Below, piece by piece: positions 660 through 63,156 of a stretch of 64,000 bases of DNA (positions are counted from its first letter, which is position 1; every line of letters starts with the position of its first letter). Source of the DNA: Harriotta raleighana (taxonomy: Eukaryota); NCBI GenBank assembly GCA_050575255.1, contig JBNZDD010013610.1, positions 1,162,366-1,226,365 of the forward strand, read 5' to 3'. A program made the position numbers and the translations under genes. The notes under the pieces are model-generated. The model did no database searches, had not been told where the DNA came from, and saw nothing but the letters and a program-made list of their open reading frames with translations.

Positions 660-3600
660 ATGCAAACGCTCTTTGGAGACAATAAGAAAGAGAGCCCGAA
701 TCCTGTCAAAGCACAAATTCGAGGTGAGGATTACTTCTTTATTGCTTTTCTTTTAATATACAAAGGCTGTTAACGGCACAGAGCAGGAAATTCCCAGGGT
801 CAGAAAAAGCAAAGCACTTTATACTATAATGTCTGTGTGGGGTGAATGGGGAACAGAGTTAAAGGGACTTTTAAAATACGAGAAGCGAAAAGGATTACAT
901 TATTTTCCAAACAGAAGTCACATTTAACGATTGATCAATGTTGAACCATAAGGTTATCAACAATTATCAGTAATGAAATGCGATTTATATCATATTTAAT
1001 TAATGGTATTCCTTGTCCGATTGTATAAGGAATGGAGCTTTCTGCTTCCCTGAATTGTTAAGAGAGAAATCTCTGAACAAATACAACAGACACTGTAGTA
1101 TTGTTATATTATCATGAATCACACGTCACAACAATTAGGAGAAATAACACAATTGCAGACATATAATGTATATCAGAGCAGCAGTTTGAACCTGAAGTGA
1201 TGTGATGCTGAGCCTTGTTGTTTATACAAAGGACTATCGAATAACATGTAATTTATAGGGCTGTAGGGTAACAGCGGGATTGGGACTAGTTGGTAGCTCT
1301 TTCAAAGAGCCAGCACTGGCATGATGGACCGAATGGCCTTCTTCTGTGCTGTAAGATTCTATAATTCAATATCCCAGGGACTACCTGAGTTGTACAATGG
1401 GCTTCACAATGGAACCTGTCCTGTCTTGTCCTGTCCGCTTGTTCAGTTGAACATTTAAAGATCCCATGGCACAAATAAATGAAAAAGGGGATACAGTTTC
1501 TCTCTCCAATAATTTTCCAGATAAAACTAGTTCCACACAGCATGGCAATGTGTGGGCACATCGCTGTGTGCAGATTGGCTGCTACGTTTGCCTAGAGTAA
1601 ACAATACTTGATAGTAAATCCTTTGGAATGCTTTAGATGCTGTAAGATTGTATGATTCTACAATTCTATAAACACAGGAAGTACCAGAGTTTTCACAATG
1701 GATTTCTCATGTGAAAGGCACTTTCTCAAATGCAATTATTATTGTTTCTATTATTATTTATTTCAAAATTGGAAGCAAAAATTTGTGAATTTCATTTGTT
1801 GCTTGGTTGGGGTGGGGGGTGGACGGAGATATGCAAATTGATATATATATGTAGTATTATTTTTGCATTAACTTCTAATACTATGAGCAGTGTATAGTAA
1901 TGTCATCTTACATTGCAATTTTATTTGTTTTAAATAGGTGAAATTCCAGAATGGTTACAAGGAACACTTATTCGGAATGGACCCGGTATGCACAGAATCG
2001 GAGACACTGCGTACAACCACTGGTTTGATGGGATGGCATTACTGCATTCTTTCACTTTCAAAGCTGGTACGTTGATGTTGAGCTCAAATGACCAATTCTT
2101 ATACGTGAGATTTAACAATATCAGCTAATGAAACAAATCGATTTTTAATACTATTATCCATAAATTGATGCAATCAGCAATAGGAATAAACCTGAACTGT
2201 TACCAATCATAGGATCGTAGAACCCTATAACACAGAAGGAGGCCATTGGTCCTAACCCCCTTTCTTTTTTCCCTTGCATTGGTGTAGATCGCTTGCTTGG
2301 ATTGGTTGGAGCGAGTGCCTGTTTCAGTGCTGTACATTCATTGTAATTTTTGAAATTAATTAAGGGTGGTAGAAATTCTCACCCCCAAAAGATTGTGGAT
2401 GCTTGATCTATCCACACCTTCAAGATCAAGGTTGATAGAGTTTGGTACGTCAGGGTATTAAAGGATAAGCAGGAAATTGGAATTGAAAGTATTCGTTGCT
2501 AATTAAATGGCAGAACAGGTTTGAAGGGCTAAATGGCCGACTCTTTTCTATGTTCCCAATTGTCTCCTACCCTGTTTCCTTTTAGATTAAAATAAAACAT
2601 GGGCCAGTTGAGGCTGATCAACACATGTGTCCATGCAACCAAGATGCTAAAAGTCTAGAAAATTGGTAAAGAGAATAATAATAATCCTTGCATTTGATAT
2701 AGCGCTTTTCAGTCTTCTAGACATCCCAGATTGTAAAATGAATTGACTTTATTTGTGGGTAAAACTCGATAGCCAATTGCACACAGCAGTGTCCCACAAA
2801 CAGTTGTAGATTAAAATAATAATGAATAATAATAATAATAATAATCCTTGCATTTGATATAGCGCTTTTCATATCTTATCAATGTCTCAATATACTGTAA
2901 AGTGAATTGACTGTATACAATTGTGGGCGAAACGCTGCAGCCAATTGTGCACAGCATTAAAGTAACCAATTTATTATTGTTTTTTTTTGAGGGATTAGTA
3001 TTAGGTGTGTGGAGTAAGGAAACTTGCCCAAGGTTTCGCCATGACCTGCCTGGAATCGAACCCAGGTCTCTTGGTTGCAAGACAAGTGCTCTAACCACTG
3101 CACTACAGCAATCCAAGACTGAAATTGTGAATCGAAACATAACTCTTGTGCATGAATTATGATTTTCTTTTTTGAATTTTTAAACATAGGTGAGATATTC
3201 TACAGGAGTAGGTACCTGCGTAGCGATACTTACAGGAGTAACATGGAAGCCAACAGGATTGTAGTGTCTGAGTTTGGAACAATGGCTTATCCAGATCCGT
3301 GCAAGAATATTTTTGCCAAGTAAGCATTCCGAGCATTGAGATTTCCAAAGTTATTTTACAGTAAAAAAAAGTTAAATTTTTGATTAAGATTGAAAAATGT
3401 ATTGTTGTCAATTTTATTTTAAAGTAAGTTTTTTTGTTATTAAATTTTACAGGGCGTTTTCCTATCTGTCGCACGTTATTCCAGATTTCACTGATAATTG
3501 TTTAATTAATATAATAAGATGCGGTGAGGATCTCTATGCATCCACAGAGACCAACTATATCAGAAAGATAGACCTGGAGTCTCTCGAAACGATCGAAAAG

Positions 3601-6600
3601 GTGAGGTTGCTTGCAAGAAACTGTCCCGGTTTCTAATTCAGGTCTCCATCATTAATATATAAACCTGAACAAACGTAAATGATTAATTTGTTCAATCGAA
3701 TACATTCCGCGGAATTGATGACATGTTTTTCAGATAAATTTATATTGGAAAGATTCAATATATTCATTCTTGATTTGAGGCTATGGTAAATATACAATGA
3801 CAACAAATTTACATTTACAGCCTGCCTTTTTTCACATTGGAGTATGTTCGAAAGTGGTGGTTAAAAAAAAACCTTGATTTATTTAACTAATAAATTTCAA
3901 ATGGATGGAAGATGTCATTCAATGCAAAATCCAATTTACAGTGGTTGGCTGCATGGATGAAAGACAGGTGAGATGGACATGAACTGGGATAGATCCAGTA
4001 AGGATAGAGATGCCACTAATTGTATTACAGATAAAGCATTTTGTATCAAGAATGAATAATTCAATACAATTGATGGAAAGCATTGTATATTGAGACCATT
4101 TTAGCACCCCCAACAGCCCCCAAATTTCTGTGATACTCTTTAACAGATTTCATCACTTCATGCATTTTTCAAAACTTAGCGTTGTAACCCTTCGGAAAAT
4201 CATTGCTGTCAATTTATAAATCACATTGAGCACAAAAATAAAAATGACCATTCTAAGAACCTTTCTGCACTTGAATAGGTTGACTATAGAAAATACGTAG
4301 CATTGAACTTGGCCACGTCCCATCCCCATTATGATTCAAATGGAAACACTTACAACATGGGCACCTCCATAGGAGAAAAGGGGAAGACAAAGTACCTGAT
4401 TGTAAAGATACCACCAAATAAACCAGGTAACTCACAGCTTGCTTACAGGTTAGTTATACCTGAAGTTTTAGGTGCACGTTTAGTTGCTATGACTTAAGGG
4501 GCTCCACTGAGTTCAGAATACAGCAACTCAACTGAAAAGCCAAAACTTTCACAGGAAACTTTCCGTAATATCTTTCAATTGGATAGCACAGTTGTTCACT
4601 TCCAGTCGCCTTTAAAACTTTTACCTTTAAGCACTCTGTTTCTCTGTTTCCAAACAGGTGACAAGAAGCACGCATGCTTTAAAAATTGTGAAGTGATATG
4701 TTCCATCCCTTCTCGTACGCTCCTCAGCCCCAGTTACTTCCACAGTTTTGGAATGACTGAGAACTACATCATCTTCATCGAACAGCCATTTAAACTGGAT
4801 ATTCTTAAACTGGCGACTGCCTACTTCAGAGGAGTGAACTGGGCCAGCTGTCTGGGGTGGTTTCCGGATGACAAGGTATTCTCTCCTGTACCAGTAACCT
4901 GTTTGATGAACTCTGCTTTAACGCACTTTGTTTTCGCACTGGTTTGCTTATTCGGGTGTGGTACCCAACATTTGCCTTCCATTCAATCTAAGATACACAC
5001 AAAATGCCTGCTGCACATGTGCAACACACAGCAGCTGGAATAAAAGAACTGCTATGTGCACTCAATAACCAGTCACTACACATTACAGCTAATCATGTGA
5101 AGCATTTTGAGATATTTCAATGATGTGACAAGTGCTGCATCAAATGCAAGGATTATTTATCTTTTTTTTTCCAGACGTATATTCACCTTATCGACAGAGA
5201 GACAAATAAGGTTTTATCTACAAAGTTCTACACAGATGCCCTGGTAGTTTACCATCACGTCAATGCCTATGAGGAAGATGGCCATGTAGTCTTTGATGTT
5301 ATTGCGTACAACGATAACAGTTTGTATGAAATGTTTTACTTGAAAAACTTAAGGCTGGATGATGCTGAATTCGAAAAACAAGGCAAGAATTTTTCTTCTC
5401 CATCTTGCAGAAGATTTGTTATCCCATTACTACAGGACAAGGTAAAGCATCATCATGTCTGCATTCCTTCAATAAACTATTACTGTTGGGCAGGACAGTA
5501 TATTCTATATAAGCAGGTGAAACTGATGGACTGGTTATAGCATTGATCAATTGAGATGGCACCATAAGACCATTTCACCAACAATATATGTGCTGGTGTA
5601 AAATCCCCTACTAAAATTATCGGATCCATTCCCCTAACCCTAATCTTTGATATTATTTTCCCAAAGTATTTAAATATACAGTATATTGTATATGTATATA
5701 ATTTGTATAAGTAATAAGTAATTTTATATATTGTGTATTTCATCCACACATATAATCAATTCACTTTACAGTATATTCTGTGAAGTACTTTGGGACAAGC
5801 ACTGCATCAAAAGAAAGGATTATTATTATTATTTATCTAATTCTGGGTTAAATACTACCATTGATTCAGCTTCAAGTGCCATTTGGGATAAGGCATTCAT
5901 TATTGCATGAACTCTCTGTGAAAACCTCCCCCTTTTATTCTAGTGGCTATAATCCTAAAATTTGAATAAGGTAATGATTTGGTGCCATTGGAAATCTGCA
6001 ATTAAATCCATGCCAGCAGAATAGGATGCTTTCCTTGTGAAAAGTTACACAATCTTGCAAGAGTAAATTTGTTAAATTGATGGGTTAAATATAAAGAACG
6101 AACATTACTCATTCACAAACAAAAACAGAAGTTGCTGGGAAAACTCAGCAGGTCAGGCAGCATCCATGGAGAAAGGAAAGTGACAAATTGACGAAGGGTC
6201 ATGGACCCGAAATGTTGACTCACTTTCCTTTCTCCATGGATGCTGCCTGACCTGCTGAGTTTTCCCAGCAACTTCAGTTTTTGTTTCAGATTTCCAGCAT
6301 TTTGTGTTTTGTTTATTATTCATTCACAGTCAATTCATAGTCCCAAAAGCCTATCAAGGCCTATTAAGGAAAAATGTTGGATGACACTTTGACCAGTCAG
6401 TCATCAGTACTTGTGCCCCTTTAGTGAAGGGAGCTCCTGTGGCTCAGTGGTTAGAGCACTCGCCTTATATGCCTTACAAGCATGAGACCTGTGTTCGAAT
6501 CCAGGCAGATCAGGGCGAAACCTTGGGCAAGTTTCCTTATTCCACATGCCTAATAATAATCCCTCCAAAAAAAACTAAAATAATAAAAAAATTGGTCATT

Positions 6601-9600
6601 TCAATCCATGACTGTTTGTGGGACACTGCTGTGCGCAATTGGCTGCCGCATTCCGCCCACAAATATACAGTATATTCTGTGAAGTGCTTTGGGACGTTGA
6701 TAAGATGTGAAAAGCGCTATAACAAATGCAAGGATTATTATTATTATTATTAGTGTGACTACAGCTCTCAGGAGAGAGGTATGTCAAGAAATAATAATAA
6801 TAATCCTTGCATTTGATATAGCACATTTCACATCTTCAAGACGTCACAAAGTCAGAATATACAGTAAAGTGAGTTGACTGCATATGTGTGGGAGAAACAC
6901 GGCAGCTAATTGCAAACATCAGTGGTGTTTTATTAATGCTGTCACTTTTATAGAATGCAGAATTAGGCACAAATGTTGTCAAACTTGGAAGCACAACAGC
7001 AAGGGCACTGAAGGAGAAAGATGGATTCACATACTGCAAGCCTGAAATATTATTTGAAGGTAATTCAAGCAAAGGTTGTTGATTGATACTGATGGATTAT
7101 AAATGAGTATGGTCTTAAATAGACCTTTATTAATTGTTGGAAAAATATATATAATTAAGTGCTAAACTTCTTTATCAATTTTTTTTTACTAACTAACAGG
7201 CCTGATGTTACAGCCAAATACTGTTTTAATAACTTTTAATTATTTACAAAAATGAAGAGGGAACAGTATACTTTAAATCCATTTACTTTCACAGTACATT
7301 TGTTTATCCTATGGTGGCTCTTTACTTCAACAGCAATAATTGGGTTAACAGGAATTGATTCAGGAAATCAGCCAGAAGCAAATTAAGGAACATAAGAATT
7401 AGGAGCAGGAGTAGGCCATTCAGCCCTTCGAGCCTGCCCCGCCATTCAATAAGATCATGGCTGATCTTCTGACCTAACTCTAATTACCTGCCCTATCCCC
7501 ACATCCCCTAATCCCTCTATTTTTTAAAAATCTATCGCTCTCAGCCTTGAAAATGTTCAAGGACTGAGCATCTACAGCCTTCTGGAGTAATGAATTCCAT
7601 AAATTCACTACCCTCTGAGTGAAGAAATGTTTCCTCAACTCTGTTCTAAAAGACTGATCCTTAATTTTAAGACTGTGATCCCTGGTTATAAATTCTCCAA
7701 CAGGAGAAACAGTCCCTCAGTATCTACTTTATCCAGCCCTTTAAGAATCTTATATGTTTCAATAAGATTCCCCCTAATTCTTCTGTATTCTAGAGAATAC
7801 AGCCCTAGTTTATTCATCCTATCCTTATAGGTCAGTCCCCTCATCCCAGAAACTAACCTAGTGAATCTACGCTGCACCCCATCTAAGCCATGTATGTCCT
7901 TTTTTAAATAAGGAGACCAAAACTGCACACAATACTCTAGGTGCGGTCTCACCAAAGCCCTATATAGTTGCAGCAAGACTTCCCTATTCTTGTACTCTAA
8001 ACCTTTTGAAATGAACGCTAGCATGTCGCTCGTCTTAGTTGCTTGCTGCACCTGCAAACTAACTTTTTGAGGTGTACAAGGACACCCAAATCCCTTTGAA
8101 TACTAACACCATTTAACCTCTCCCCCTCCAGAAAATAATCTATTCTTTTATTTTTGCTACCTAGGTGAATAATTTCATACTTGCCAACATTAAATTCCAT
8201 CTGCCACCTATTTGCCCACTCCCCTAGCCTATCTATATCTTGTTGCAATCTTTTTGCATCATCCTCAGAGATCACTCTCCTACCTAGTTTAGAGTCATCC
8301 GCGAATTTAGACATATTACATTCAATGTCCTCGTCTAGATCAGTGATGCAAATAGTAAATAGCTGAGGCCCAAGCACTGACCCTTGTGGCACTCCACTAG
8401 TTATATCCTGCCAATTTGAGAAAGTATGCCTTTCTCAGTTCACTCTCTGCTGAGTGTGAACTTAAGACATTCTGTTGATTATAAAGATCACATTGCCAAT
8501 GAAAGCCTTTCCTGCTTTTGAAAGTTAATACAGATGAGAAATTGCAAACTTCAGTTTATCAATAGTAAATTATCTTAATTGGAATCATATCCTACTTTAT
8601 AGAAGTGAATTACACAAAGCGTATTCTACGCTTCACGAAAAGTGCCCAGATATGCAAACAAATTCCACTTTCATTCAATCATTAAATTCAATTGCTTTCC
8701 AGGAATAGAACTGCCGCGGATAAACTATGACTACAATGGCAAAAAGTACCGATACATCTATGCATCCAAGGTTGAGTGGCGTCCACTACCAACAAAGGTA
8801 CAGTGTGTGATTGTAGAGGAGTGAGAAGAGAAAGAAGTAGAACATTTATTATTTATTTGTATATTATTCATTTTTGACGATTTGGATTGGTTTTGTATTT
8901 AAAGAAAGGCACAGTTGTCACGTCACAATTTCTCTGTAAATTCATTGAAAAGTGGTAAATGATAAGTTATAGCTTTGAATGAAAACTAATTTTCACTTAC
9001 CTAAGTCCCTTTTGAATGCAAATGTGGATAAGATGTGGAATACAAGGAAAGTGTGGGAACTATTACTTTTGTTTATATAGGACTCATTGAGGCGGTAGTA
9101 CTGCTGAGCATTTATTCAGCGAAATTCTTGAAAGAGCCCTTCAAATTAGACTTCACAGGTGCTCCAACCTGGGAACTTCAAAACAGAAAAATATGGATTG
9201 CTCTTTGCAATAATAATAATCCTTGTATTTTGATATAGCGCTTTTCATGTCTTCTAGAATATACTGTAAAGAGAATTAACTATATGTATATATATATATA
9301 TGTGGGCAAAACGTGGCAGCCAATTACACACAGCAGTGTCCCACAAACAGTCATAAATTGAAATAATCAAATTTATTATTGTTATATAACAATTGTATAA
9401 GGCATAGTTTGCAAACTTAAATCATTTTAAGCCACACCTATTTTCCAGTTCATTAAAACCAATGAAACAATTATTTTCCAGATCATAAAATGTGATATTC
9501 TAACTAGAACCTGCTATGAATGGAGAGAGGACCAATGCTGGCCAGCAGAGCCAGTCTTTGTCAGAGCACCAGAGGCCAAAGAGGAAGATGATGGTGACTA

Positions 9601-10351: not shown

Positions 10352-11712
10352 TTGAGTAAAACTACAATGAAACTAAATGACTTTTGGAGAAGTACATCAT
10401 CTGAGCGCAATTGGTTGCAGCGTTTCGCCCACAAATATTCTTCAATTCACTTTATAATACATTCTGTGAAGCACTTTGAGATGTCGATAAGATGTGAAAA
10501 ACACTATATCAAAATGCAAGGATTATTATTATCAGCAAGTTAGTGATATCCAAATGGGATACGGACATATGACTCAACAACATGCTCAGAGCTGGCTTAT
10601 ACTGAATTTACAAACTCTGTAGCACTGATTCAAATTCCGAACCCTCTAATTAAAATTATTTAAATTGCTGTGTACATTTAGAAATAATGAAGGCAACTTC
10701 TTATTTACCCATTTGCAGAATAAAACATCACCTGGAGTTAAATGTTCATCAGATAGTTCTTATTTAAAAACAGTGATGATGATCTGAGAAATATGACATT
10801 AATACAATCTACTGATGAGAATGTATCAATATTAATTTTACGTTGATGAATGTAACATTTCTATGCTATTACATGAAGGTTTATGCAGAACTATAGTATT
10901 TGTGGGTGTTCTTAATGTACGTTTTCTGTGCAACCACTAATATAATGAACTATTTTTATATATTGTAATTAATTTTGGTTTCTCGATCAGGGAAAGTTAC
11001 AGAGTTAGATTTGTTCTGATAATTTTTATTGCTGATAATTTTTGGTACATTGTGACAAATATTCAGTTGTCTGTGTGTTAAAATACAAATTTGTGTTGAA
11101 AGCCCTGAACAATTAAAACATAGTTGTTCAGAACGAATTCAATCCATGGATCATGGGGAGGGAATAAATATGTTAATCACTAGGTCACTAAAAAAGTAAA
11201 ATAGTATTACAGTATAAAAAATATTAACAGCGTGCCAAAATGTCATATTACCAAACAATAAGTTTTATTTATCTGAAATGTGATGTTGAGAGTCCTATGC
11301 AACTACACAGCCTTTTAATCCAATTTAGATTTGTTTGAGTGTCATTTAATTAGCATTGCTAAATCCTTATTAAGACATTATTTAATAAATTACTGTGATC
11401 TTAATCTTACCCTAATACAAATAGTTCCCTGAAACAAATAAAGATTTTAAGCTTAAACTATTAAATGCTTCACAGAGTGCGTGACTGTTGGTACATTTGA
11501 TTTTGTATTTTTGTGCGATTATTGGTGCTCCCCATTCTGAAGTGTGGTCAAAAAAGTCAATGCAACAAACAACCGAGTGACCTTGGCAGTTATTCAACCA
11601 CTGGCCTAAAAACAAGTCCAATCAATAAACTAAATTGTGAAGTACTTTACCCCCCTCAAATGTCTCCTTCTGTCCTATGTTCCTAGACAAACCTCTCTTA
11701 CGCCATCCCCCA

Positions 11713-12696
11713 CAGGCCAGTCAATCTAATGTCGGTAGTGAGCAAACTTCTGGAGTCTATAATCAGGGACAAGATAGATCTTCACTTAGAAAGGTATAGG
11801 CTAATAAAGGACAGCCAGCATGGATTTGTTAACGGGAAATCTTGCCTTACAAATCTGATAGAATTTTTTGTTGAGGCAACGGAATGGGTGGACAAAGGCA
11901 GCGCAGTTGAATTAATTTACATGGACTTTCAAAAGACATTTGACAAAGTGCCGCATGAGAGGCTTATTAGGAAAATAGAGGCCCACGGCGTTAAAGGGAC
12001 AGTGGCAGCATGGATCCACAACTGGGTGTGAGACAGAAAGCAGAAAGTTGTGGTGAGTGGCTGTTTTTCAGACTGGAGGGAAGTGTGCAGTGGCGTTCCC
12101 CAGGGATCGATTTTGGGACCACTGCTCTTTTTAATATACATTAATGATCTGGACTTGGGTGTAGGGAGCACAGTTTCCAAATTTACAGATGATACTAAGT
12201 TATGGAGAAGAGTAAATAGTGAGGAGGATAATAACCATCTGCAAGAAGATATAGATAAAATGGTAAAGTGGGCAGACACATGGCAGATCAAGTTTAATGC
12301 AGAGAAGTGTGAGATGATACATTTTGGGAGAAGAAATGAGGGGAGGCAATATAGGCTAGATAGTACAATTTTAAGGGATGTGAGGAAACAGAGAGACCTG
12401 GGGATGTGACTCGTGGTCACAGATTTAAAATAGTTTCCAAACGAAGCAGAGGAGAGTTGAGGAGAAATTTTTCACTTAGCGGGTTGTTTGAATCTAGAAA
12501 GCATTGCCTGAAAAGGTGGTGGAGGCCAATTCGATAACAGCTTTTTAAAGAGAATTAGATTTTTATTGAGGGAGAACAGGTCTGTTAGGTAATGGGGAGA
12601 AAGCTGGGCAGTGGGATTGAGTTGCTCTTTTCAAAGAGGCGGCACAGATTAGATGGGCCGAATGGGCTCCTTTTGTGCCGTAAAATTCTATGATTC
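11713..12696 (+). mobile_element. CR1-type LINE fragment, degenerate RT plus 3' end
   Basis: ORFs 11729-12031 (QHGF..KSCLTNLIEFF..YMDFQKTFDKVPH) and 12050-12409 (GVPQGSILGPLLFLIYINDLD..KFTDDTK) with stops and an internal deletion; 3' end GATGGGCCGAATGGGCTCCT..TTCTATGATTC. Confidence 0.93.
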
Positions 12697-16932: not shown

Positions 16933-19900
16933 TCAGTTCCTCAGGGCAGCCAACCTGGAAAAGAACATTAAAGAGTCACCGTGGAGCAAGACAGGCTGAA
17001 AACTGGAAATTCATATTGGATGTTTTCGATTTTAAAATAAAGCTCCATCTACATTCAGATGATTGTGTCTTCTATTTACAAAACAATGGCGAGTTGTGCA
17101 TATTTGCCTATCAGTTTTTCTCTCCTCGCTTGAAACTCTTTGCTTTCCTTCTATAGGAAGTTCAGTTCTACAGTTGACAGGTTTGGTAGCTCACACAGGT
17201 AGCTATTTCGGAGTGAGTGTTGACAATAGCATCTGCAAGCTGATTTTCTCTCTATCTAAGGCTACTGAGACTTATCGCAACTCCCATAGTGCTGATCCAG
17301 ATATGACTAGCAAACTTGTACACAAGTTATTAAATGTGTGTACATTAGGGAAAAAGGCAAGCAATATCATGTCAATCCTGTTTTGCCTTGTCACAAATCA
17401 TGGATTTGATAGCTTTCTTCTCTGAGTTCACAAAACTAATACTTCCTGTGATCAATCAGCAAAGATGTTTTGCAGGAAATTATTGTTCGTGATTTTTAAT
17501 ACATCCCATTGATTCAACAGCTTCAGAATTGACTCTAGCAGTCAATTAGTTTTGATGGCTTTTGCAGCATCTTCTGAATTATTTTCCAGAATTTGAAGCA
17601 ACAGAAACATTTGAAAACAAATGTATTATACAGTAATTCCAAAAGGATGCTAGTGCCTTCACGCAGAAATATTCTGCCCCGATCTGTACAGCAATAACAT
17701 CATCATGAAAAACATGTACAAGTAAGTATTTCAGTTAATAGTCCCACCTCCGTGAAAGCTGGTCCTCCTTGTTCTGGGTACCAACAGAAGATTCTCCAAG
17801 AGAGGTCGCTCCAGCTGGCAGTTGGTTGAGCTGGTCCATGACCTCCAAACCATTTTCCTCAGCAATCTGCACAATTAGATTATCTACTTGCTCCTGAGGA
17901 GTGGTCAACGTTGTTGCTGAGCTCATCGAATCTTCCATTACCTGCAAAGGTGAAAGACAATTAATGTTGGCAGTGTAAACAGTACCATACAAAGAAAGAC
18001 AGGGAAAAACAATTGAGATAGTGGATCAAACATGATGGGATCTGAGATACACAAATACATATCCATTAACTAGGTAAAAAGGTGCATTCAATAAAGTACT
18101 TACCGAAGTGTGCACATCAAGGTTCTGAACCTGCTGCTCAAATTTGTCCATGACTGCAGATACCATCTGTAGGTCCATAGACTTCATCGCCCTTTCCAGT
18201 CCTTTTGTAACATGTCCCATTTGCTTTGTAACCTAAAAGTTTAAAAAAAATCCTTCATTCCACTTAAAAAGTAGTTCAGTGCTAGAAGCAACCAAGTAAT
18301 ATTGATTCAATGATAATCTCAAGCTCAACTAATTTCTACCCAATTAAAAGTGCGCATGGTTATGTTTGACATTTGCAGCCCTCGTCAATCAGAGGGTCAA
18401 CGCAACACATTGTGTAACACATCTAGAAAATGAACAAAGAGCCACACAGCCGTTCCATACCCCTTTCATTGTTGCTGCTGTCTGCACTTTCGAAGCAACT
18501 GCATCAATTCGAGAAGCCATCCGTAGCCAGTTCAAACCTTCATTTTTCTTTCTAATGGCATTCTCTGCATAAATCTTTGCTCCTTCAATGTTTTTCTGTT
18601 GAAGTGCCTGGAAACAAAAAAAAACAAGATGGTCACAATCTTGACAGAAAACCTGACCATCAGCTTTTCATAAGAAATTGCTCAAATAAAATCTATTACT
18701 GGCAACAAAATACACACAAAGAAAATAAGAAGTCAAACTCTGGCTCATGAAACCTGGACACATAATAGTGGAGTAAAACCAAAGTGAAAATAAAATTTGT
18801 CTGGACAGCATTAGATGCCAGTAATTATAACTAGATGTACACTTGTTAATTTGGATTTAAGAGCCACACTGCATTTGAATGTGTTCCAGCAAAAAAAAGC
18901 TTTATTCTGTTCATCACATCAAGCCTATTCCTTGCTGATCATTAGAGAAGAATTGAAATAGCTGCAAATTTGAAATGACAGAAAGCATTTACTAACCTTC
19001 TTCACTTTGGCTTGTTCACTTTTTGAGTCCTTTTCTGCCTTCTTGGACAGCTTCTCCAGCTGTTTTGATGTAAACTGTAGAAGATTGTGTTTCAAAATTA
19101 CAATGAATTAACTGCTCACAATCAATACAAAACCAAAAAGAAAAAATGAACTATTATCTTTTTCCACCAAATACTTTGTGGTTTGCTCTGAATTTTCTGC
19201 CTTAACACACCACTAAAGTGACACCTTCACCCAGTAAACTTCTGTAGCGAGTTAGTCATGTTAAAATACACACTACAACAAAATTACATTTGTAAAGCTC
19301 CTTTCACATCAGGAGGTCGCCCCAAGGCACTGAAGAGTAATGAAAGGGAAATACAGCCAACCCAAGGCTATGGTACAAACTGTCAAGATAGATATTAAAT
19401 TAAATAGATGACCCAACAGTTATGAATTGCAGACAGTCTCCCAAACAGAAAAACCACATCAAATTGATCAATTTCCCATAAACATAATGTATATTGACAA
19501 CATGTAAACCCATGCTTCTTCAAAAGAGTGTAAAGTGTATTTAATGTCTTTTCTATAGCATATTCCAGTGATACATAAATTTCCTGCATTAAATATATAA
19601 ATGTGGACAAATTTAGTTTTCAAAATTACAGCACAAAAAGTATAACATTTTGTACTTACCCGTAACTGAAACAAAGTATCTGTAAGAAAAATATAAACAG
19701 ATAGTTAGAAATATAAATGGGATGGAATTAAATGGATATAGGTTTGGTTTAGATAAGCTTCAACAACTTGAATTTATAGTGCACCCTTCACATAGCTTCA
19801 GTATGGAGCGCTTCAGTATGGAAGAGGGAGAAAGCTAAAGAGTGTTGGTGAGAGAAAAGGAGGTCAATTTGAGATAGTGAGAGTAAAAGTGATCTGAAAT

Positions 19901-21711
19901 ATAGGAGTGTCAAACTATAATAATAATAATCCTTGCATTTGATATGGTGTTGTTTCATTGCAATGTTTCAAAGTGGATTCCCTGTGTATTTTGCAGATGC
20001 AAGATACAGAATACTTACACAGAATATATATGGTTGAAATAGTGAAAATAGCTCACTTTATTGCTCTGTCTGGGACAGGTAACTGCTCATGCATAATAAA
20101 TGGCACTTCCTGCCCAATATACCCACATTGAAGTATCTAATGGACAAGACTGGTATAGGCGGTATACATAGGTCTAATCTTGTCATAATAACAATAATAT
20201 CCTTGTATCTGGCACAGCGCCTTTCATGTCTGGAAGACAAGGCAGCATTAACTGTAAAGTGGGAGTTACTGTGGCAAACATGTAAGTCAAACTCAGGCAC
20301 ATAAGCAACAGGATGGATGCCATGTCAAGCTCTCGTTACGACTCCAGCAGTTACCCCAACCCAGAATCCCCAAGCCTTGGATCTTGCCAACTTAAGCCTA
20401 ATACTCTCCGGAATTAGGTCAGCAGGATGCGTTCCTCCAGGGAGACTGCGCGTTCCATTCCAACAACCTATGGAGTCCTGCAGCTCAGTGGTTAGAGCAC
20501 TTGCCTTACAAGCGAGAGACCCGGGTTCAGTTCCAGGCAGGGCGAACACTTGAGCAAGTTTCTTTACTCCACACGCATAATAATAATTCCTCAAAAAATA
20601 ATAATTGGTCACTTAAATCCATGACTGTTTGTGGAACACTGGTGTGTGCAACTTGCTGCCGTATTTCTCCCGTATTTCTTCGAGACGTCTCACAGAATAT
20701 ACTGTAAAGTGAATTGACTGTGTTTTGTGGACGAGACATGTACAACAACCAAAATTTGCATTTATATAACGACTTTCAGGTATGGTAGGTGGGATACACG
20801 TAAATCCTGGTTTGCTTCAGATACCACTGACAGACACTGACAGATACGTCTTCTAGACGTCTCAAAGCGCTTCACAGAATATACTGCATAAGTGAATTGA
20901 CTGTATATTTGTGGGCAAAACGCGGTAGCCATTTGCACATAGCAGTGTCTCCACAAACAGTGGTGGATTGAAATGACCAATTTTATTTTTGCTTGAGAGA
21001 TTATTATTATGAGGCGCGTGTGTGAGTGTGTGGGGGGAGTAATGGACCTGCCGGGAATCGAACCCAGATCTCTCGCTTGTAAGATGAGTGCTCGAACCAC
21101 TGAGCTACAGGATTCCAATAACAATAACAATCCCTCCAAAAAATATGTTTGTTCAATCCATGACTGTTCATGGGGACACTGCTGCACGCAATTGGCAATC
21201 GCATTCCACCTGCAAAATATACAGTAGTCAATTCACTTTACAGTATATTCTGTTAAGCACTCTGACACGTCAATAGATGAAAGCGCTCTATTAAATGGAA
21301 GGATTATTATTTACAGTAATAGTTATGAAAAATTATGAACTGGGAGGGAATGAGGGGGGGATCTATAGCTGGTTTCTGCAGATGGGTTTCTGTATGTGTC
21401 AAGACATCTGGTTAACCCCAAAATATATATATATACATACATACATACATACTTATATATATATATATATATATGGGAGAGGCTGGGCCTGTGACCTGTG
21501 GCTGAGGTATGTGATGAGGGGCAGGGCAGGCCGGGAGGGGCCGGGGCCTGTGGCTGATGGATGAGGAAACAATCACAGGCGCCTCATACACACAAACACA
21601 CACACACACACACACACAGTGCAGGAACCTGACCCTCTAAACCTCTCCCTCCGCCCGCGGGGTGTCGCTGTGTATGTGTGTGAGAGAGAGACCCGGTCCC
21701 GTACCATCCAT
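16933..21711 (-). CDS. CHMP1A: Charged multivesicular body protein 1A (ESCRT-III), 7 coding exons, 198 aa
   Basis: Exons (minus) 21705-21711, 19660-19679, 18997-19074, 18461-18607, 18104-18232, 17748-17941, 16933-16954; all GT-AG; 597 nt. [97 protein letters not shown] (C-terminal MIM1 motif). The 7-nt and 20-nt first exons are typical of CHMP1A. Confidence 0.97.
20472..21312. mobile_element. Cluster of three Deu-core SINE copies in alternating orientation (CHMP1A intron 1)
   Basis: About 20472-20660 (+, head and core), 20845-21116 (-, head at 21116), 21117-21312 (+, body and tail). Confidence 0.8.
21588..21617. repeat. (CA)n microsatellite
   Basis: Near-perfect CA run; (TA)n/(TACA)n run also at about 21424-21473. 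Confidence 0.85.
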
Positions 21712-22052
21712 GGTCTCAGCGGGTCCCAGGTAATTCCCCAGCGTCGTCGCCGCTTTCGCCTGTCTGTACCTCAATTTCTTCCTGCAACAAGGAGTGAACA
21801 CTGCCTCCGGTACCGTCACTGTCACTCTCGCGATACCGCGCAGGGAGTCACATGACGAGGGTGGGTATATGTGTGTGAGGGAAGAGGCCGGCGTATAACC
21901 CCATCACGTGATACTCCCCTTTTTGTCAGTCACACCACCCTCTCCAACCCCCGCCCTGCCGATGACGTCGCCCACCGCGCAACAAATGCTCCTCCCACTC
22001 CCTGGCACAAGTGCCACAGGTCCAGCTGGTGACTGACTGACAGACAGACAGC
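21712..22052. promoter_or_regulatory. CpG-rich bidirectional promoter between CHMP1A and SPATA33-like gene
   Basis: Divergent ATGs 341 bp apart; motifs TCTCGCGATA (21826-21835), GTCACATGAC (21847-21856), ATCACGTGAT (21903-21912), TGACGTCG (21963-21970). Confidence 0.75.
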
Positions 22053-22656
22053 ATGGGAGCCTCCAACAGCAATCACCACAAACAGCCCAAAGGTAATGTT
22101 CTCTTAATACCAGTAGAGATAATAAGGTGCTTCTGTGTTATATATATATATGTTCTTTGTTAATATATATTTTTTTTAAATTCCACCTCCTCCCTGCACA
22201 CACCCACATCCTTTGTTGCATTCACTTTGAAATCTCTTTGAATTAATTCATCCCTTTTTACTTGATAACCACCATAATAATAATCATTATCCTTGGGTTT
22301 GCCTTATCGTAATCAAATGCCTTATTGTATTGTCATTCGAGACGTCTCAAAAGCGCTACACTATGAAGAAGATTGATTGTAATTTTCCAGCCAAAAATTT
22401 CAAATACATGTGTGAAGATTCGATTGCGGCCTGTTTTGTCGTCTGTAGGGTTTGCAATAAAAATGTTTTTTTTTAAATCTTTTCAGATCGCCACGCCTCG
22501 GTTGGAAAGGCATCAAAGAAAAATAAACTAGCAGTTCCTTCGATTGTGGTCACGTCTGCATCTGCTACTTCCAACGAGCAAATGGGTGCACGCCAAGATA
22601 AAAGCAATGAAGAATCAGCCCATGAAAAAACAAATCAGTCAAGAAGAGCCAACTAA
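22053..22656 (+). CDS. SPATA33: SPATA33-like microprotein, 2 exons, 69 aa
   Basis: Exons 22053-22092 (donor AG|gtaatg) and 22487-22656 (acceptor ttttcag); MGASNSNHHKQPKDRHASVGKASKKNKLAVPSIVVTSASATSNEQMGARQDKSNEESAHEKTNQSRRAN*. Basic patch + VPSIVVTSAS resembles mammalian SPATA33 VPQIIITRAS; position between CHMP1A and CDK10 is the SPATA33 locus. Confidence 0.8.
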
Positions 22657-23434
22657 ATGTTAATCCAAAATAACATTGTCAGTTTGTTCAGAAGACACGC
22701 TGAAATTATAAAGAAAGATTTTTTTTTCGCAGGCTGCAGAAGCAAATTATATCATCTAAAAATGTAGTTATACAAAAAGCAGCAGCAAGTTTCTTCAATT
22801 TGCCTTTCTGTGACTGAAAACCCATATGGTTGAATGTAATAAGTCCCTCACAGATCAATATTGAATTGGAAATGATTTTGTAATGTTGCTGATTCAATTG
22901 AGGTTGGGTGCAAAGAACCAGATTTTATTCTCAAGTTTATCAACCTCTGTTACATTACACAAAAGTGTTACTTGGACTTTATAACAAATTGCATTTAGAT
23001 AGCTTTCACCTTGGGAGAACATGAATAATGGGGTAGCCAGGGCAGGGGACACAAAGCCAGTGCCTGCTGAGAAGGGGTAGAGATGTGTGCTCGGGTTTTA
23101 GAAGGTCACAGTGGGGAAATATGGAGATTTCAAAATTTGTATGAGGATGTTGAACTCTATTCTCTGGGGATGGAGAACCAGGGGAGCTGGGAAAAATGAG
23201 TGACAATAACTTCATGTTTTCCTCACTGGGCTGTAAACGTTTTTACAGACTTCAGAATAAGATTTTCAGTGTTTTATGTAATAGGTCAATACAGTACCTA
23301 AAACTCTGTGGTAGATTTAAAACTGTGACATACTTGATGAACTGTCCTTTATACAAATGTTGTAATATATTCTAAAACATTAACTTAAGTAAAATTCAAC
23401 ACTACTAGGTTGATTTTTTTGTATATTATTTTAT

Positions 23435-23746
23435 GGAGTCCTGTAGCTCAGTGGTTAGAGCACTCGCCTTACAAGTGTGAGACCTGTGTTTCAAATCCAT
23501 GCAGGTCAGGGGGAAACCTTGGGTAAAGTTTCCTCACTCTGCATGCCTCATTACAATTGGTCCCAAAAAAACCTATAATAAATTGGTCCTTTCAATCCAC
23601 AACTGTGGGACACTGCTGTGCGTAACTCGCTGTAATGTTTTGCCCACATATACATACATATACAGTTAATTCTACCATATATTCTGTGAAGTGCTTTGAG
23701 ATGTCTAGAAGTCATGAAAAGTGCTATATCAAATGCAAGGATTATA
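23435..23746 (+). mobile_element. tRNA-headed Deu-core SINE, full length
   Basis: GGAGTCCTGTAGCTCAGTGGTTAGAGCACTCGCCTTACAAG head, core and GCTATATCAAATGCAAGGATT tail. Confidence 0.88.
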
Positions 23747-24167
23747 TATATATATATTTACATACAAAAATAACACAAAAAGATATATAGAAATAACCCA
23801 AGATAAATATTGCACACGCATATAACACGCATTGTTTCAAATCATTGTTTATTGAGGAAAATTATTGTGTGAAATGAACAAATTCATAAGCATTTGTAGA
23901 TGTTTTCCTTCAGTTAGGCTAACTACCCTTTTGTAACTTACAATTCCATAAAAACTGCATTATTGGAAAAACTACCTTTCTTAAATGAACCTACACATTG
24001 CAATCATCCACAGGCTAAGCACCAAAGCCACACACTCCCATCGAGGAAGTCAGTTGGTAGCAAACATGAACTTTGCTGCTTTCTCCCTTCCCCCTTGTTA
24101 ACACAGTAATGCAGGTAAACCAAATGCACACCATATAATACTAAGTTATATAGTACAGCATACTTGT

Positions 24168-24468
24168 GGAGTCTTGTAGCTCAGTGGTTAGAGCACTTGC
24201 CTTACAAAGAGTTCGATTCCAAGCAGGGCAAATCCTTGGCCCACTTCCTTACTCCACAAGCCTGATAATAATCCCTCAAGAAATAAACCAATAATAAATT
24301 GGTCATTTCAATCCACAGCTGATCATGGGACAATTCTGTGTGCAATTGGCTGCTGCAATGCACCCACAAAATATACAGTCAATTCACTTTACAGTAATAT
24401 TCTATGAAGCGCTTTGAGATGTTCAGAAGATGTGAAAAACGCTGCATCAAATGCAAAGGATTATTATT
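24168..24468 (+). mobile_element. tRNA-headed Deu-core SINE
   Basis: Same head/core/tail with a small deletion in the head. Confidence 0.85.
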
Positions 24469-24479
24469 GTTGTTGATCT

Positions 24480-24830
24480 TTTTGTTTGTTGCTGTTGTTG
24501 GTGCCCCCCCTGCCCCTTCCCCCCCCCTTTTCTTCTTCCCTCCCTCTCCCCCCTTCCCTCCGTCTTCCCCCTTTCTCCCTATTTCTACCTGGTTTTGCCC
24601 CCACCCACCTTTCCCTCCCTCTTCCCCCTTGCCCCACTTTCTCTCCCCTTTTTCCTGACTGTTTGTTGGGATACTGCTGTGCGCAATTTGGCTGCCGCGT
24701 CAATTTTTTCCTACTTTCTTTTCCCTGACCCCTCTCCCACTGCTCTGATCCCTACTTGACTGTACAGAGCCTTGGGACGTCCTCCTGACGTGAAAGGTCG
24801 TCACGTAAAATAAATGTAATTTTGATTGAT
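24480..24830 (+). mobile_element. Variant repeat: C-rich pyrimidine tract + Deu core + L2-type tail
   Basis: Related copy at about 36470-36760; tail CCTTGGGACGTCCTCCTGACGTGAAAGG matches L2 3' ends elsewhere in the window. Confidence 0.6.
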
Positions 24831-25025
24831 TGATTATTTCACACTGGAAAGATATCCCAAGGCGCTGGACAGTCAGGGGCTTTGGAAACCTTTGAAAAAA
24901 ACCTTATTTCATTTCAAAATCACAGAACCTATAGTTGGCCACTCTGCTACCCACAGTGTGTAACTGGTAATATACTGAGCTACCTTGGAGGGGGTGGGAG
25001 GCTATAACGTGTAATTCCTGTCCAC

Positions 25026-25039
25026 CCACCAGAGGGCGA
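25026..25039 (+). promoter_or_regulatory. CTCF-like motif upstream of CDK10 ATG
   Basis: CCACCAGAGGGCGA fits the CTCF core consensus CCASYAGRKGGCR. Confidence 0.55.
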
Positions 25040-25086
25040 CCATTAAGGCAACTTCGGGAGAGCGGCTGGTTGGCCACGGCGGCATC

Positions 25087-31560
<6,474 letters not shown>

Positions 31561-33066: not shown

Positions 33067-35146
33067 TTACTGTAATGTGACTTCATGGCTGTTCTGCAGT
33101 TTCTTAAGACTCTGGTCACAGATCGTACACTCCATTCTATTTTTATAACCACAATAGTTACATGCAAATACACTGCATTCACATTGAAAATACACTGACG
33201 GATTTCCGCAGCTCTCACATTTATCTACTTTAGAGGTATGGATTGCCAAAGGCTGCCTCGAGTCATGAGCAGGAGCCTCAAGCCTTCGTGAATAGCTTGA
33301 CTCTTCGGGACTAGACCTGAAGGAATGATCTTGGCTTGACCTAGTCACAGGGTCATATGGAGCACCTTGAATTGTACCATACATTTCATGACTGTACTGA
33401 GCATAATTAATGTTACTGGGGTGATCGTGCTCTTGGTTTGTTTCGTTACCCAAATACCGTGATCTACTCAGAACATCCTCGGCATTCACATTTGCGAGAG
33501 TACTTTGATTACTGTGAACTGAATCAAAATGGAGTCTGTCCTTAAAAGATGCTTCTGGGGATTCATAACCCAGGTGGTTTCTTCCAGCAGACCCTGTAAA
33601 ATGGATTTCATTGCCCTGTTTCGCAAACAATGCATTATAAATGATACTGCCACTAGGCTTTGGCGATGTTGCGTTTTGTCTGTTGGTATTTCTGCTATCC
33701 TCTCTGTGTGATGGAGGCATAGTCTCATTGCCATTCAACTTTATATCAGTGTATAGATTTTCAAATTCTTCAGTCGATTCTCCTCTTCCGAGTCGAGTTT
33801 CTCTCTGGCTATTAGCCCTTGTGTACTTCCTTACTCTCAGCTCATTGACACATTTATCAATGCTTTCCATCAATCTCCTCTCCTGAATCAACTCATGGAC
33901 TGAAGAGACGCAATGCTCTACCTTTTCTACAATCTCCAACAAGATCTCACATTCCAGTCTTGCAGAGAAGAACTCAAATGCTCGCTTGACAGATTCCCGA
34001 GGCTCTGAGTCTCCCAATTCCAGATAGAAACTATCTTTCAGTCTGTAGCCCATTCTCTTGAAAATACTCGCCAGGTCGTCACTGCAAAGTGCAGGCTTCA
34101 GATAATGCACGTAAGCACCTGAAAATGTCTAACAATAGAGGAAAAAAAAGTGTGAGGTCAGGCTGCTTTTCTGAACTCACAGATGGAGGCAGATGTATAT
34201 CCACTTAAGATGTTCTGTCACCTGTTATTCTCCACCTTCACTGTACAATCCTGTTTGTAATAATAATACTTGCATTTAATATAGTGTTTTTCACATCTTC
34301 TTGACGTCTCAAAGAGCTTCAACAGAATATACTGTTTACGTGTTGTTAAGCTTCAAATCGAATCTCTTGACATTGCACAACCCATAGTGACTCATTCCCT
34401 AGGATAACAGCAAATATGTTCCCTTTATTGAGGTGAGGAAGAGGATACGTGGAGTGAAATATGACTCTGCTGTGTACCTTTCATGCTCACACATCAAAAC
34501 GCTCAAAGTCTTCTTCAGTTAACTAATGTACCAGATTTTGCAATGGATGTAACTTGCTGTATGATGCTCACTCGTAAGTATGAGGTCTGCCCATCGATTA
34601 GAGAGAAACTTAGACATTAGAACTATTAATTTGAATTAAAAACTATTAAGTGGGAAGTGTGAGGCCTGGTCAACTATGGAAGAGATAAATTAGTCACTAA
34701 GACCTTAAAGGTTGGATTAATCAGCTTTGTTGTAGCCACAGCAACACAGCACAGTAATGAACAAAGAAATAAAGTTCCTCAATTCTCATTGACTTCCCCC
34801 CTCCTCCCTTTGTGAATATTTATCATAAAGAAACTACCTTTATCGTGTTAAACTCCTTTCTCCATGGAAACACCGCCAGGTTGACGGCTGCCAACTCCAA
34901 TAATTCGAAGGCCCTGATCAGCAACTTCAGAGCGCTGGCCAGGTCCCATTTTCCTTGCAAAGAATTGGCCACAATCTCAAAGACGCCGTCGCGTAGGACG
35001 CTGTGCCACTCTTCACCATTCTGGGTCAGATGGAGCCTAGTCAGCCGCTTGACTTCACTATCGTGGCAAATGCCATCGGGTCCTGGAAGGCAGTCTTCGT
35101 ACATTTGCCTGAGTTGCTCACAGGTATTCCACAGACTGATACTCAT
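33067..35146 (-). CDS. SPATA2L: SPATA2-like protein (PUB-domain CYLD adaptor family), 2 coding exons, 456 aa
   Basis: Exons (minus) 34838-35146 and 33067-34128, GT-AG. N-terminal domain ..AFELLELAAVNLAVFPWRKEFNTIK|TFSGAYVHYLK.. is the SPATA2/SPATA2L signature; convergent with CDK10 as in human. An acceptor AG directly before the ATG implies a non-coding first exon (possible donor near 36024). Confidence 0.9.
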
Positions 35147-60619: not shown

Positions 60620-63156
60620 GGGTAGACCTCTTCCTGGTGCAGAAAACAATGCAATCTTGTTGCAGAACGGCTGATAGAAGTCCACATCAGACTATAAATT
60701 TAGCGAATACAGATGTGCAGCAATAACAAGAGGAATCATGTTTCAGCATTATTCGTCATTGTGATCGACACATTTTCATTCCTCTCATCATCACCCAAAG
60801 TGATTGTAACCACCAACAAACAAAAAAAGCCTCAGAGTTTTCTGTGCTCAAAATACACGTTTGTGTTGTGAGAGCAAAGAGAAGAGTTCTTCTGCAGTGT
60901 AGACCCCAATGCACAAACACAGGCCATTAACGCCTAACACTGTCATTCGAAGATCCTACTATAGATTTTTAAAGGTGCATATGTTTGCCCTTTTGATTTC
61001 ATTTTGCTCTAATGCATTCTCTTGAAGCAATGAATCGTGTGGATGGATAATTTGCCCCGAAACTCTAGAACATTCTTCCTCTATCCCTCCGCATTGCCCC
61101 TTCCTTTCCCATCGACTGTGTTCCAGCACCTTGGGACATTCTCCTGACGTGAAAGGAGCTCTGTAAATGTAATTTTGTTGGTGTTACAGCCACCTCCCCA
61201 TCTCACTGGCTCGGATTTGTGCTCCACCGCTGTTAAGCCCTACCCTGCATGAGAGGTGCTGTATAAATGCAATCTGTTGTTGTTGTTGATTCCTCAAGGC
61301 TCCGGTAAATCACTTGCATTTGCCACACGTGGACACATATGTTACTGGACACAAGTGTCAAAAACGTTCACTATCTGACCAGCCATTCTCCTCAACTTTT
61401 ATTCACCAATGTACACTCCTAGGCATTGTTAGATCATGGATTTCTACTCCACTCAGTCTCTCAGTTGTAGCGTAGATAATATGACTGACATCAGCAAACA
61501 ACTCATTTGACAGTGATTGAACCTGGGACCTTTCCCATCCAGAGGGCTTGGTGCCAAAGCACGCAATGCAACTCATCCGTGAGTCATCACAGGGGAAATA
61601 CAGTACGGAATTTAGCTTTAAAAAGTTGCAGAATTTAGCTTAGCCGAATAAAATGTTACAGAAGCTGCCTTTGTCGGATAAAATTAATTGCAGATTTGGC
61701 ACATATTTTCAAATGAAGACTTTGACAGATCTGCCGAGTCAGTATCCTCTATTATCATTTGGCAAAGGCTGTTCGCCTCAGAATGATCTGCTAGCCACAG
61801 GTATAGACCTGTTCCAATGGATTTGTTCAGTTACCATCCCATTTCACTTGGCCAACTCAAATAAACTTGTTTCAACAAAACCCAATTNGGGTAGACCTCT
61901 TCCTGGTGCAGAAAACAATGCAATCTTGTTGCAGAACGGCTGATAGAAGTCCACATCAGACTATAAATTTAGCGAATACAGATGTGCAGCAATAACAAGA
62001 GGAATCATGTTTCAGCATTATTCGTCATTGTGATCGACACATTTTCATTCCTCTCATCATCACCCAAAGTGATTGTAACCACCAACAAACAAAAAAAGCC
62101 TCAGAGTTTTCTGTGCTCAAAATACACGTTTGTGTTGTGAGAGCAAAGAGAAGAGTTCTTCTGCAGTGTAGACCCCAATGCACAAACACAGGCCATTAAC
62201 GCCTAACACTGTCATTCGAAGATCCTACTATAGATTTTTAAAGGTGCATATGTTTGCCCTTTTGATTTCATTTTGCTCTAATGCATTCTCTTGAAGCAAT
62301 GAATCGTGTGGATGGATAATTTGCCCCGAAACTCTAGAACATTCTTCCTCTATCCCTCCGCATTGCCCCTTCCTTTCCCATCGACTGTGTTCCAGCACCT
62401 TGGGACATTCTCCTGACGTGAAAGGAGCTCTGTAAATGTAATTTTGTTGGTGTTACAGCCACCTCCCCATCTCACTGGCTCGGATTTGTGCTCCACCGCT
62501 GTTAAGCCCTACCCTGCATGAGAGGTGCTGTATAAATGCAATCTGTTGTTGTTGTTGATTCCTCAAGGCTCCGGTAAATCACTTGCATTTGCCACACGTG
62601 GACACATATGTTACTGGACACAAGTGTCAAAAACGTTCACTATCTGACCAGCCATTCTCCTCAACTTTTATTCACCAATGTACACTCCTAGGCATTGTTA
62701 GATCATGGATTTCTACTCCACTCAGTCTCTCAGTTGTAGCGTAGATAATATGACTGACATCAGCAAACAACTCATTTGACAGTGATTGAACCTGGGACCT
62801 TTCCCATCCAGAGGGCTTGGTGCCAAAGCACGCAATGCAACTCATCCGTGAGTCATCACAGGGGAAATACAGTACGGAATTTAGCTTTAAAAAGTTGCAG
62901 AATTTAGCTTAGCCGAATAAAATGTTACAGAAGCTGCCTTTGTCGGATAAAATTAATTGCAGATTTGGCACATATTTTCAAATGAAGACTTTGACAGATC
63001 TGCCGAGTCAGTATCCTCTATTATCATTTGGCAAAGGCTGTTCGCCTCAGAATGATCTGCTAGCCACAGGTATAGACCTGTTCCAATGGATTTGTTCAGT
63101 TACCATCCCATTTCACTTGGCCAACTCAAATAAACTTGTTTCAACAAAACCCAATT
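60620..63156. repeat. Apparently identical 1268-bp direct tandem duplication separated by a single N (likely assembly artefact)
   Basis: 60620-61887 repeated at 61889-63156 (offset 1269; identical ORFs at 61653 and 62922); N at 61888. Confidence 0.92.

Follow-up and report, generated by a model that had tools for sequence, protein, structure and literature searches.

In human, the slot between CHMP1A and CDK10 is occupied by the sperm-motility gene SPATA33 (also called C16orf55; gene order DPEP1, CHMP1A, SPATA33, CDK10, as tabulated in PMC5779959), which lies upstream of CHMP1A exon 1 (PMC10544971). Spata33 was published as conserved in mammals only (PMC3699523), which raises the question of what fills the corresponding slot in the 64,000-nt stretch of genomic DNA analysed here (the window). 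The source genome of the window is holocephalan, as judged by the SPATA2L gene (33067-35146, minus strand; two coding exons). The large exon of this gene shares 73% identity with that of Callorhinchus milii and 34-39% with those of eight sharks (9 matches among 514 candidates), and the first exon is 84% identical to C. milii compared to 43-54% for the sharks. No match was identical, so this genome's own proteins apparently lie outside the protein collection.

The two genes that define the slot are intact. The left neighbour, CHMP1A (16933-21711, minus strand; 7 exons, 198 aa), has its ATG at 21711 and no internal stops, and a PDB sequence search with one of its exons returned CHMP1A as the top match. 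The right neighbour (25087-31560, plus strand; 13 exons, 360 aa) has its ATG at 25087 and, again, no internal stops. We named it CDK10 based on its PMSSLRE motif, length and position, taking PISSLRE to be the signature motif of CDK10; the nearest solved structure to the model is CDK11B. SPATA2L comes next, as it does after human CDK10. Between CHMP1A and CDK10, head-to-head with the former and upstream of both CDK10 and SPATA2L, the slot is occupied by a 69-codon frame, likely a short chimaera orthologue of SPATA33.

A preliminary description of this DNA had proposed that two small exons splice in frame to encode a protein beginning with MGASNS and carrying the hexamer PSIVVT, and our re-reading confirmed each of these points in the joined frame. 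Coding exon 1 (22053-22092, plus strand; 40 nt) contributes the ATG, Gly2 and Ser6 in 13 codons plus 1 nt (phase 1). It is followed by a predicted GT-AG intron of 394 nt (22093-22486, GC 0.32) and by the coding part of exon 2 (22487-22656), which contains PSIVVT at 22537-22554 and closes the 69 codons with a TAA ending at 22656. Both exons lie outside repeat-covered sequence. The ATG at 22053 has A at -3 and G at +4, and an in-frame stop is found at 22038, 15 nt upstream.

We scored the splice sites with matrices derived from the neighbouring CDK10 and CHMP1A models (18 donors, 18 acceptors). The exon 2 acceptor, a pyrimidine tract closing in TTTTCAG, scored 11.2, the highest of 169 AG dinucleotides in 21740-25086 (leave-one-out range of real acceptors, -4.5 to 13.1). 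The exon 1 donor (AAG/GTAATG) is only average, ranking joint seventh of 183 GT dinucleotides with a score of 6.2 (real range, 3.0 to 11.0). Past the stop, strong acceptor-like sites are present on the plus strand at 22733 and 23914 (scores 9.2 and 10.3). Spliced to these, exon 1 yields just 24 and 20 codons, and the two sites may represent 3′ UTR splicing or chance.

The start codons of CHMP1A and the 69-codon frame are 342 nt apart, and the CpG-rich interval between them (21712-22052, no strand assigned) is a likely bidirectional promoter. The CpG observed/expected ratio is 0.5-0.96 over 20500-22750 compared to 0.11-0.3 over 22750-24750. Within 21849-21968, the interval carries CACATG at 21849, CACGTG at 21905 and TGACGT at 21963. 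The first two are E-box/CLEAR-like and the last is CRE-like, a combination that could fit an ESCRT gene in one direction and a testis gene driven by CREM in the other.

The coding signal of exon 2 is consistent with that of its neighbours. Its GC content is 0.44 against 0.32 and 0.29 in the flanks, and its codon score of 0.108 falls within the values spanned by exons of the neighbours (-0.035 to 0.159); of 118 stop-free control stretches, 4 scored as high. Taken alone, a PxIxIT-like hexamer carries little weight: Px[IV]x[IV]T has five matches in the six frames of the window, two of which are one duplicated copy, and it appeared in 13% of 2000 simulated intervals. The longer pattern L.VP.[IV].[IV]T has a single match in the window and was obtained in 1 of 2000 simulations, and the complete two-exon pattern was obtained in 0 of 1000, with the simulation criteria fixed after the candidate had been seen.

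Compared against 24736 Pfam families, exon 2 has as its top family DUF4609 (PF15382; E 0.0093, 16.3 bits), the domain of SPATA33 (PMC3699523). The first 33 codons of exon 2 alone match at E 0.0056 and 17.0 bits, and both scores lie below the Pfam cut-off of 27 bits. An E value near 0.01 to some family is chance level: when 56 forward frames of at least 20 aa in 22093-25200 were scanned, five matched any family, among them an intronic frame whose match to an unrelated family had an E value of 0.01. The DUF4609 match nevertheless counts because synteny predicts that one family and because the register is exact, with exon 2 codon i falling on profile position i (5-26 on 5-26) in a match that places codons 5-33 on positions 5-30 of 68. 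Synteny and this independent match together support the SPATA33 identity put forward in the preliminary description, and by position and partial profile the frame is best treated as a SPATA33 orthologue. Since it scores below the cut-off, lacks the tail and does not have three exons, we do not class it with the typical members. In the ESM Atlas, the look-alikes of the predicted protein were confined to DUF4597 and DUF4609 clusters (0.76-0.82). The top three were C16orf74/DUF4597 clusters at 0.81-0.82, followed by a SPATA33 cluster at 0.78, and skipping DUF4597 left SPATA33 only, at 0.76; scores below 0.9 are leads only, and a third of shuffled proteins reach 0.8.

Searches for homologous proteins came back blank. 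With exon 2, a word-index search gave no candidate among proteins of 30-97 aa and 12 candidates, none at E up to 10, among those of 98-2000 aa. A phmmer search against 1.84 billion representatives produced 0 matches at E up to 0.001, and a PDB sequence search produced 0 matches for the candidate protein. We calibrated these searches with 55-aa SPATA2L windows of this genome, which found the C. milii protein in 20 of 20 cases and each shark protein in 4-6 of 20, and with simulated copies of exon 2, recovered in 85 of 100 cases at 60% identity and 49 of 100 at 50%. Because the sensitivity at shark distance is low, the blank searches say little about sharks or mammals. They suggest that in C. milii the orthologue either lacks an annotation or has diverged strongly, in line with the earlier expectation that the gene is probably missing from annotation. 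We note that models of SPATA33 from outside mammals may already exist in public gene databases beyond the reach of these searches; among the matches listed in a literature search for SPATA33 in fish, none was on a fish gene by title.

The frame shares with mammalian SPATA33 its slot between CHMP1A and CDK10 and head-to-head orientation, a Met-Gly start with predicted myristoylation, a PxIxIT-type motif and DUF4609 positions 5-30, whereas positions 31-68 are unmatched here. Mouse SPATA33 has 132 aa encoded in three exons (PMC3699523), with residue 44 in exon 2 (PMC8536318), compared to 69 aa in two coding exons in the chimaera. The chimaera frame has 14 residues before profile position 1 and 55 after. 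Assuming that the mouse C-terminus lies close to the end of the 68-position domain, we infer that about 50 of the 63 missing residues precede the domain and motif and about 13 follow them. The frame looks like mammalian exon 1 fused to exon 3, as though the middle exon were missing. The preliminary description saw a reduced form, but a single lineage does not give the direction of change, and the frame may be either reduced or ancestral.

The preliminary description had placed the missing part at the C-terminus, where mammalian SPATA33 has a tail of the WGP/HR type. That tail is absent, as a regular-expression scan of all six frames of 21700-30100 found neither WGP nor H[RK].PS; most of the missing length, however, would lie before the motif. 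A downstream exon restoring the full-length C-terminus, a possibility that the description had raised, was not found. The three GT sites that follow the motif have scores of 0.1, 0.9 and -1.2, lower than any of the 18 real donors; no GC donor occurs past the motif; and among the 56 forward frames scanned in 22093-25200 the exon 2 frame itself was the one match to DUF4609, with none supplying the remainder of the profile. We also rejected a hidden middle exon: the donors of the four stop-free internal cassettes found are weak (at most 3.4), and the best cassette would be left with an intron of 42 nt. The N-terminal 60 residues of mouse SPATA33 bind ATG16L1 and the C-terminal 73 bind VDAC2 (PMC7937689). 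As most of the stretch matching mouse residues 1-60 is missing, the ATG16L1 link is probably absent in the chimaera protein.

At the N-terminus, Gly2 and Ser6 conform to a PROSITE-type N-myristoylation pattern, as the preliminary description had claimed, although the feature is not new, since mouse Spata33 has a Met-Gly start (read from a primer) and a predicted N-myristoylation site (PMC3699523). Residues 1-29 of the chimaera protein contain 7 Lys/Arg and 1 acidic residue, and the basic cluster KASKKNK (residues 21-27; 22507-22527, plus strand) may act as a second membrane signal. Myristate together with a basic cluster is an established way of membrane binding, which the charge pattern of residues 1-29 and the lack of Cys would fit.

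The same description had identified PSIVVT as a PxIxIT-type calcineurin docking site. This is plausible, given that PVIVVT is a strong binder and Val is hence tolerated at position 5 (PMC6728138), but it is incomplete. The full motif is LAVPSIVVT with Ser at +3, a composite LxVP/PxIxIT site of the LxVPxIxIT form seen in calcimembrin, for which the pattern L.VP.[FILV].[FILV] has been described (bioRxiv 10.1101/632547). Its LxVP half, LAVP (residues 28-31; 22528-22539, plus strand), shares a proline with PSIVVT (residues 31-36), and Ser39 (22561-22563) stands three residues after the motif, without a following Pro. In mammals, SPATA33 binds calcineurin via PQIIIT, somatic isoforms included (PMC8536318). 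AKAP5/AKAP79 and CABIN1 likewise dock calcineurin by a short linear motif, and the PEITVT of CABIN1 has Val at position 5 as PSIVVT does; these are large multi-partner proteins, and homology is not implied. In contrast to the mammalian SPATA33 motif, which presumably has no Leu of LxVP, the LxVP overlap is complete in the chimaera.

Calcimembrin (C16orf74, MICT1; DUF4597, PF15366) is also a disordered microprotein of about 70 aa with Gly2 and a Ser/Thr at +3, and its composite LxVPxIxIT begins about 30 residues from the N-terminus (position 33, compared to 28 here). Ser39 corresponds to its phospho-Thr44. Calcimembrin occupies the PxIxIT groove of calcineurin with an affinity of 14 nM with and 291 nM without phosphorylation of the Thr at +3, its LxV flank gives an about fivefold gain in affinity, and its dephosphorylation requires a second molecule bound via LxVP (PMC12612047). 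In PVIVIT, a phospho-Ser/Thr at +3 raised affinity about 50-fold, with little effect in other scaffolds (PMC6728138). We did not find SPATA33 and C16orf74 named together in one paper, most subscription papers being outside the reach of the search, and among the matches listed no paper pairs SPATA33 with calcimembrin, MICT1 or LxVP; the bioRxiv list of composite motifs might include SPATA33.

Based on this information, we put at roughly 60% the reading that the frame is the chimaera SPATA33 orthologue and encodes a predicted myristoylated adaptor that would concentrate calcineurin on a membrane, with male germ cells as the probable setting. Gly2 would be myristoylated and the basic cluster would help to hold the protein on the membrane, while LAVPSIVVT would dock in the PxIxIT groove of calcineurin A. 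By analogy to calcimembrin, the LAV flank and phosphorylation of Ser39 may tune the affinity, and a second copy may present LAVP to activated calcineurin. Testis-biased expression from the promoter shared with CHMP1A and a role in sperm are suggested by mouse. As human SPATA33 binds somatic calcineurin too, a sperm-specific isoform would be unnecessary. Because most of the ATG16L1-binding stretch is missing and the tail is non-homologous, simple tethering to a membrane is more probable than the part that the mammalian protein plays in mitophagy.

We considered four other readings of the locus. A premature TAA could have removed the tail of a decaying or recently truncated SPATA33, leaving a pseudogene or hypomorph. 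DUF4609 positions 31-68 are unmatched, and the unique sequence past the stop lacks AATAAA and ATTAAA, offering variant hexamers only, with the first AATAAA in a SINE at 23577. Ten codons past the stop, the same frame reads FRRH (22687-22698, plus strand), which resembles part of the mammalian SPATA33 tail. A run of aromatic-basic-basic-His residues arose in 0.11% of 20000 simulated 36-codon stretches, the pattern having been picked afterwards; FRRH is a possible decayed remnant of the family tail to which the profile gives no support. Reading through the stop (X at TAA) did not extend the DUF4609 match but lowered it to 15.6 bits, and the tail alone gave no DUF4609 match. The frame past the stop looks non-coding (GC 0.29, codon score -0.27), and the start, splice sites and motif are intact, leaving truncation improbable in our judgement. 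A frame open by chance in intergenic DNA would account for the small size, the low complexity (Ser, Ala, Lys and Asn make up 35 of 69 residues, with no aromatic residue and no Cys) and the blank searches. It would not account for the synteny-expected family being the family found, for the joint null of 0/1000 or for the best acceptor of the interval, and we regard it as the least probable of the four.

The remaining two readings accept a real gene. One is a different main N-terminus: an alternative donor at 22029-22034 (plus strand) scores 6.9, compared to 6.2 for that of exon 1, and would connect ATG 21962 or 21986 to exon 2 in frame. The resulting proteins of 78 or 70 aa would lack Gly2, and the main product would be a soluble calcineurin-binding peptide that carries no myristate. 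Mouse C16orf74 has a longer, cytosolic variant of this kind (PMC12170882). Both upstream ATGs, however, have C at -3 and one overlaps TGACGT, whereas ATG 22053 has A at -3 and G at +4, and mouse Spata33 starts with Met-Gly; we consider this reading unlikely, about on a par with truncation. The other reading, a relocated C16orf74 orthologue instead of SPATA33, draws on the similar length (69 versus 76 aa), Gly2, the position of the composite motif and the three top Atlas matches, all DUF4597 clusters. Against it, Pfam gives DUF4609 and not DUF4597, which had no match at E up to 10 (HMMER filters on, exon 2 scanned without exon 1). Cys7 and Cys14 are S-acylated in calcimembrin, whereas the chimaera protein has no Cys and a basic cluster instead, and the Pro-directed TPPT is replaced by TSAS, with Ser at +3 and no prolines. 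The locus is that of SPATA33, while human C16orf74 lies elsewhere, at 16q24.1, and such a relocation seems to us very unlikely.

A link between the two families can be drawn in another way. We speculate that SPATA33 and C16orf74 arose as paralogues from a single myristoylated LxVPxIxIT microprotein present in early jawed vertebrates, that the chimaera keeps the ancestral form at the SPATA33 locus, and that the middle exon and tail, with their connections to ATG16L1, VDAC2 and the sperm midpiece, were gained subsequently in the lineage leading to mammals. Their common size and motif spacing hint at this, as do the location of both on human 16q24 and one Atlas cluster that mixes DUF4597 (85%) and DUF4609 (15%) members, but we hold the scenario to be doubtful. 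If the likeness to calcimembrin does reflect kinship, two calcineurin-anchoring proteins studied in separate fields would form one family.

For SPATA33 itself, published as mammal-only, a copy at the syntenic position in a chimaera would place the origin of the gene in the jawed-vertebrate ancestor and would suggest that its conserved core consists of the Gly2 anchor and the docking motif. SPATA33 is a candidate contraceptive target (PMC8536318), and the chimaera form would provide a natural deletion variant for asking which of its parts target mitochondria. The gene also exemplifies a class of small genes with two exons that may escape annotation in cartilaginous fishes.

We made several further observations in the window. 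On the plus strand at about 3400-5540, carotenoid oxygenase exons (Pfam RPE65 family) lie to the left of CHMP1A, in the place taken by DPEP1 in human. Beyond SPATA2L, a gene with an initial Rossmann-type GxxGxxG motif begins at about 41385 on the plus strand and is weakly like NAD-dependent epimerase/SDR proteins. A tRNA-headed SINE is present in about 30 copies (21003-21319, 23425-23765, 24163-24485 and elsewhere), and two copies between the candidate gene and CDK10 bear the first AATAAA hexamers downstream of the stop. An Rfam scan detected only 8 tRNA-like SINE heads, none of them in the two exons of the candidate gene. Broken LINE reverse-transcriptase frames, with RVT_1 matches in 3 frames, are found at 7686-8434 (minus strand) and 11687-12409 (plus strand). 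Finally, a 1268-nt exact repeat (60620-61887 and 61889-63156) flanks the only N of the window, at 61888, and is most likely an assembly artefact.
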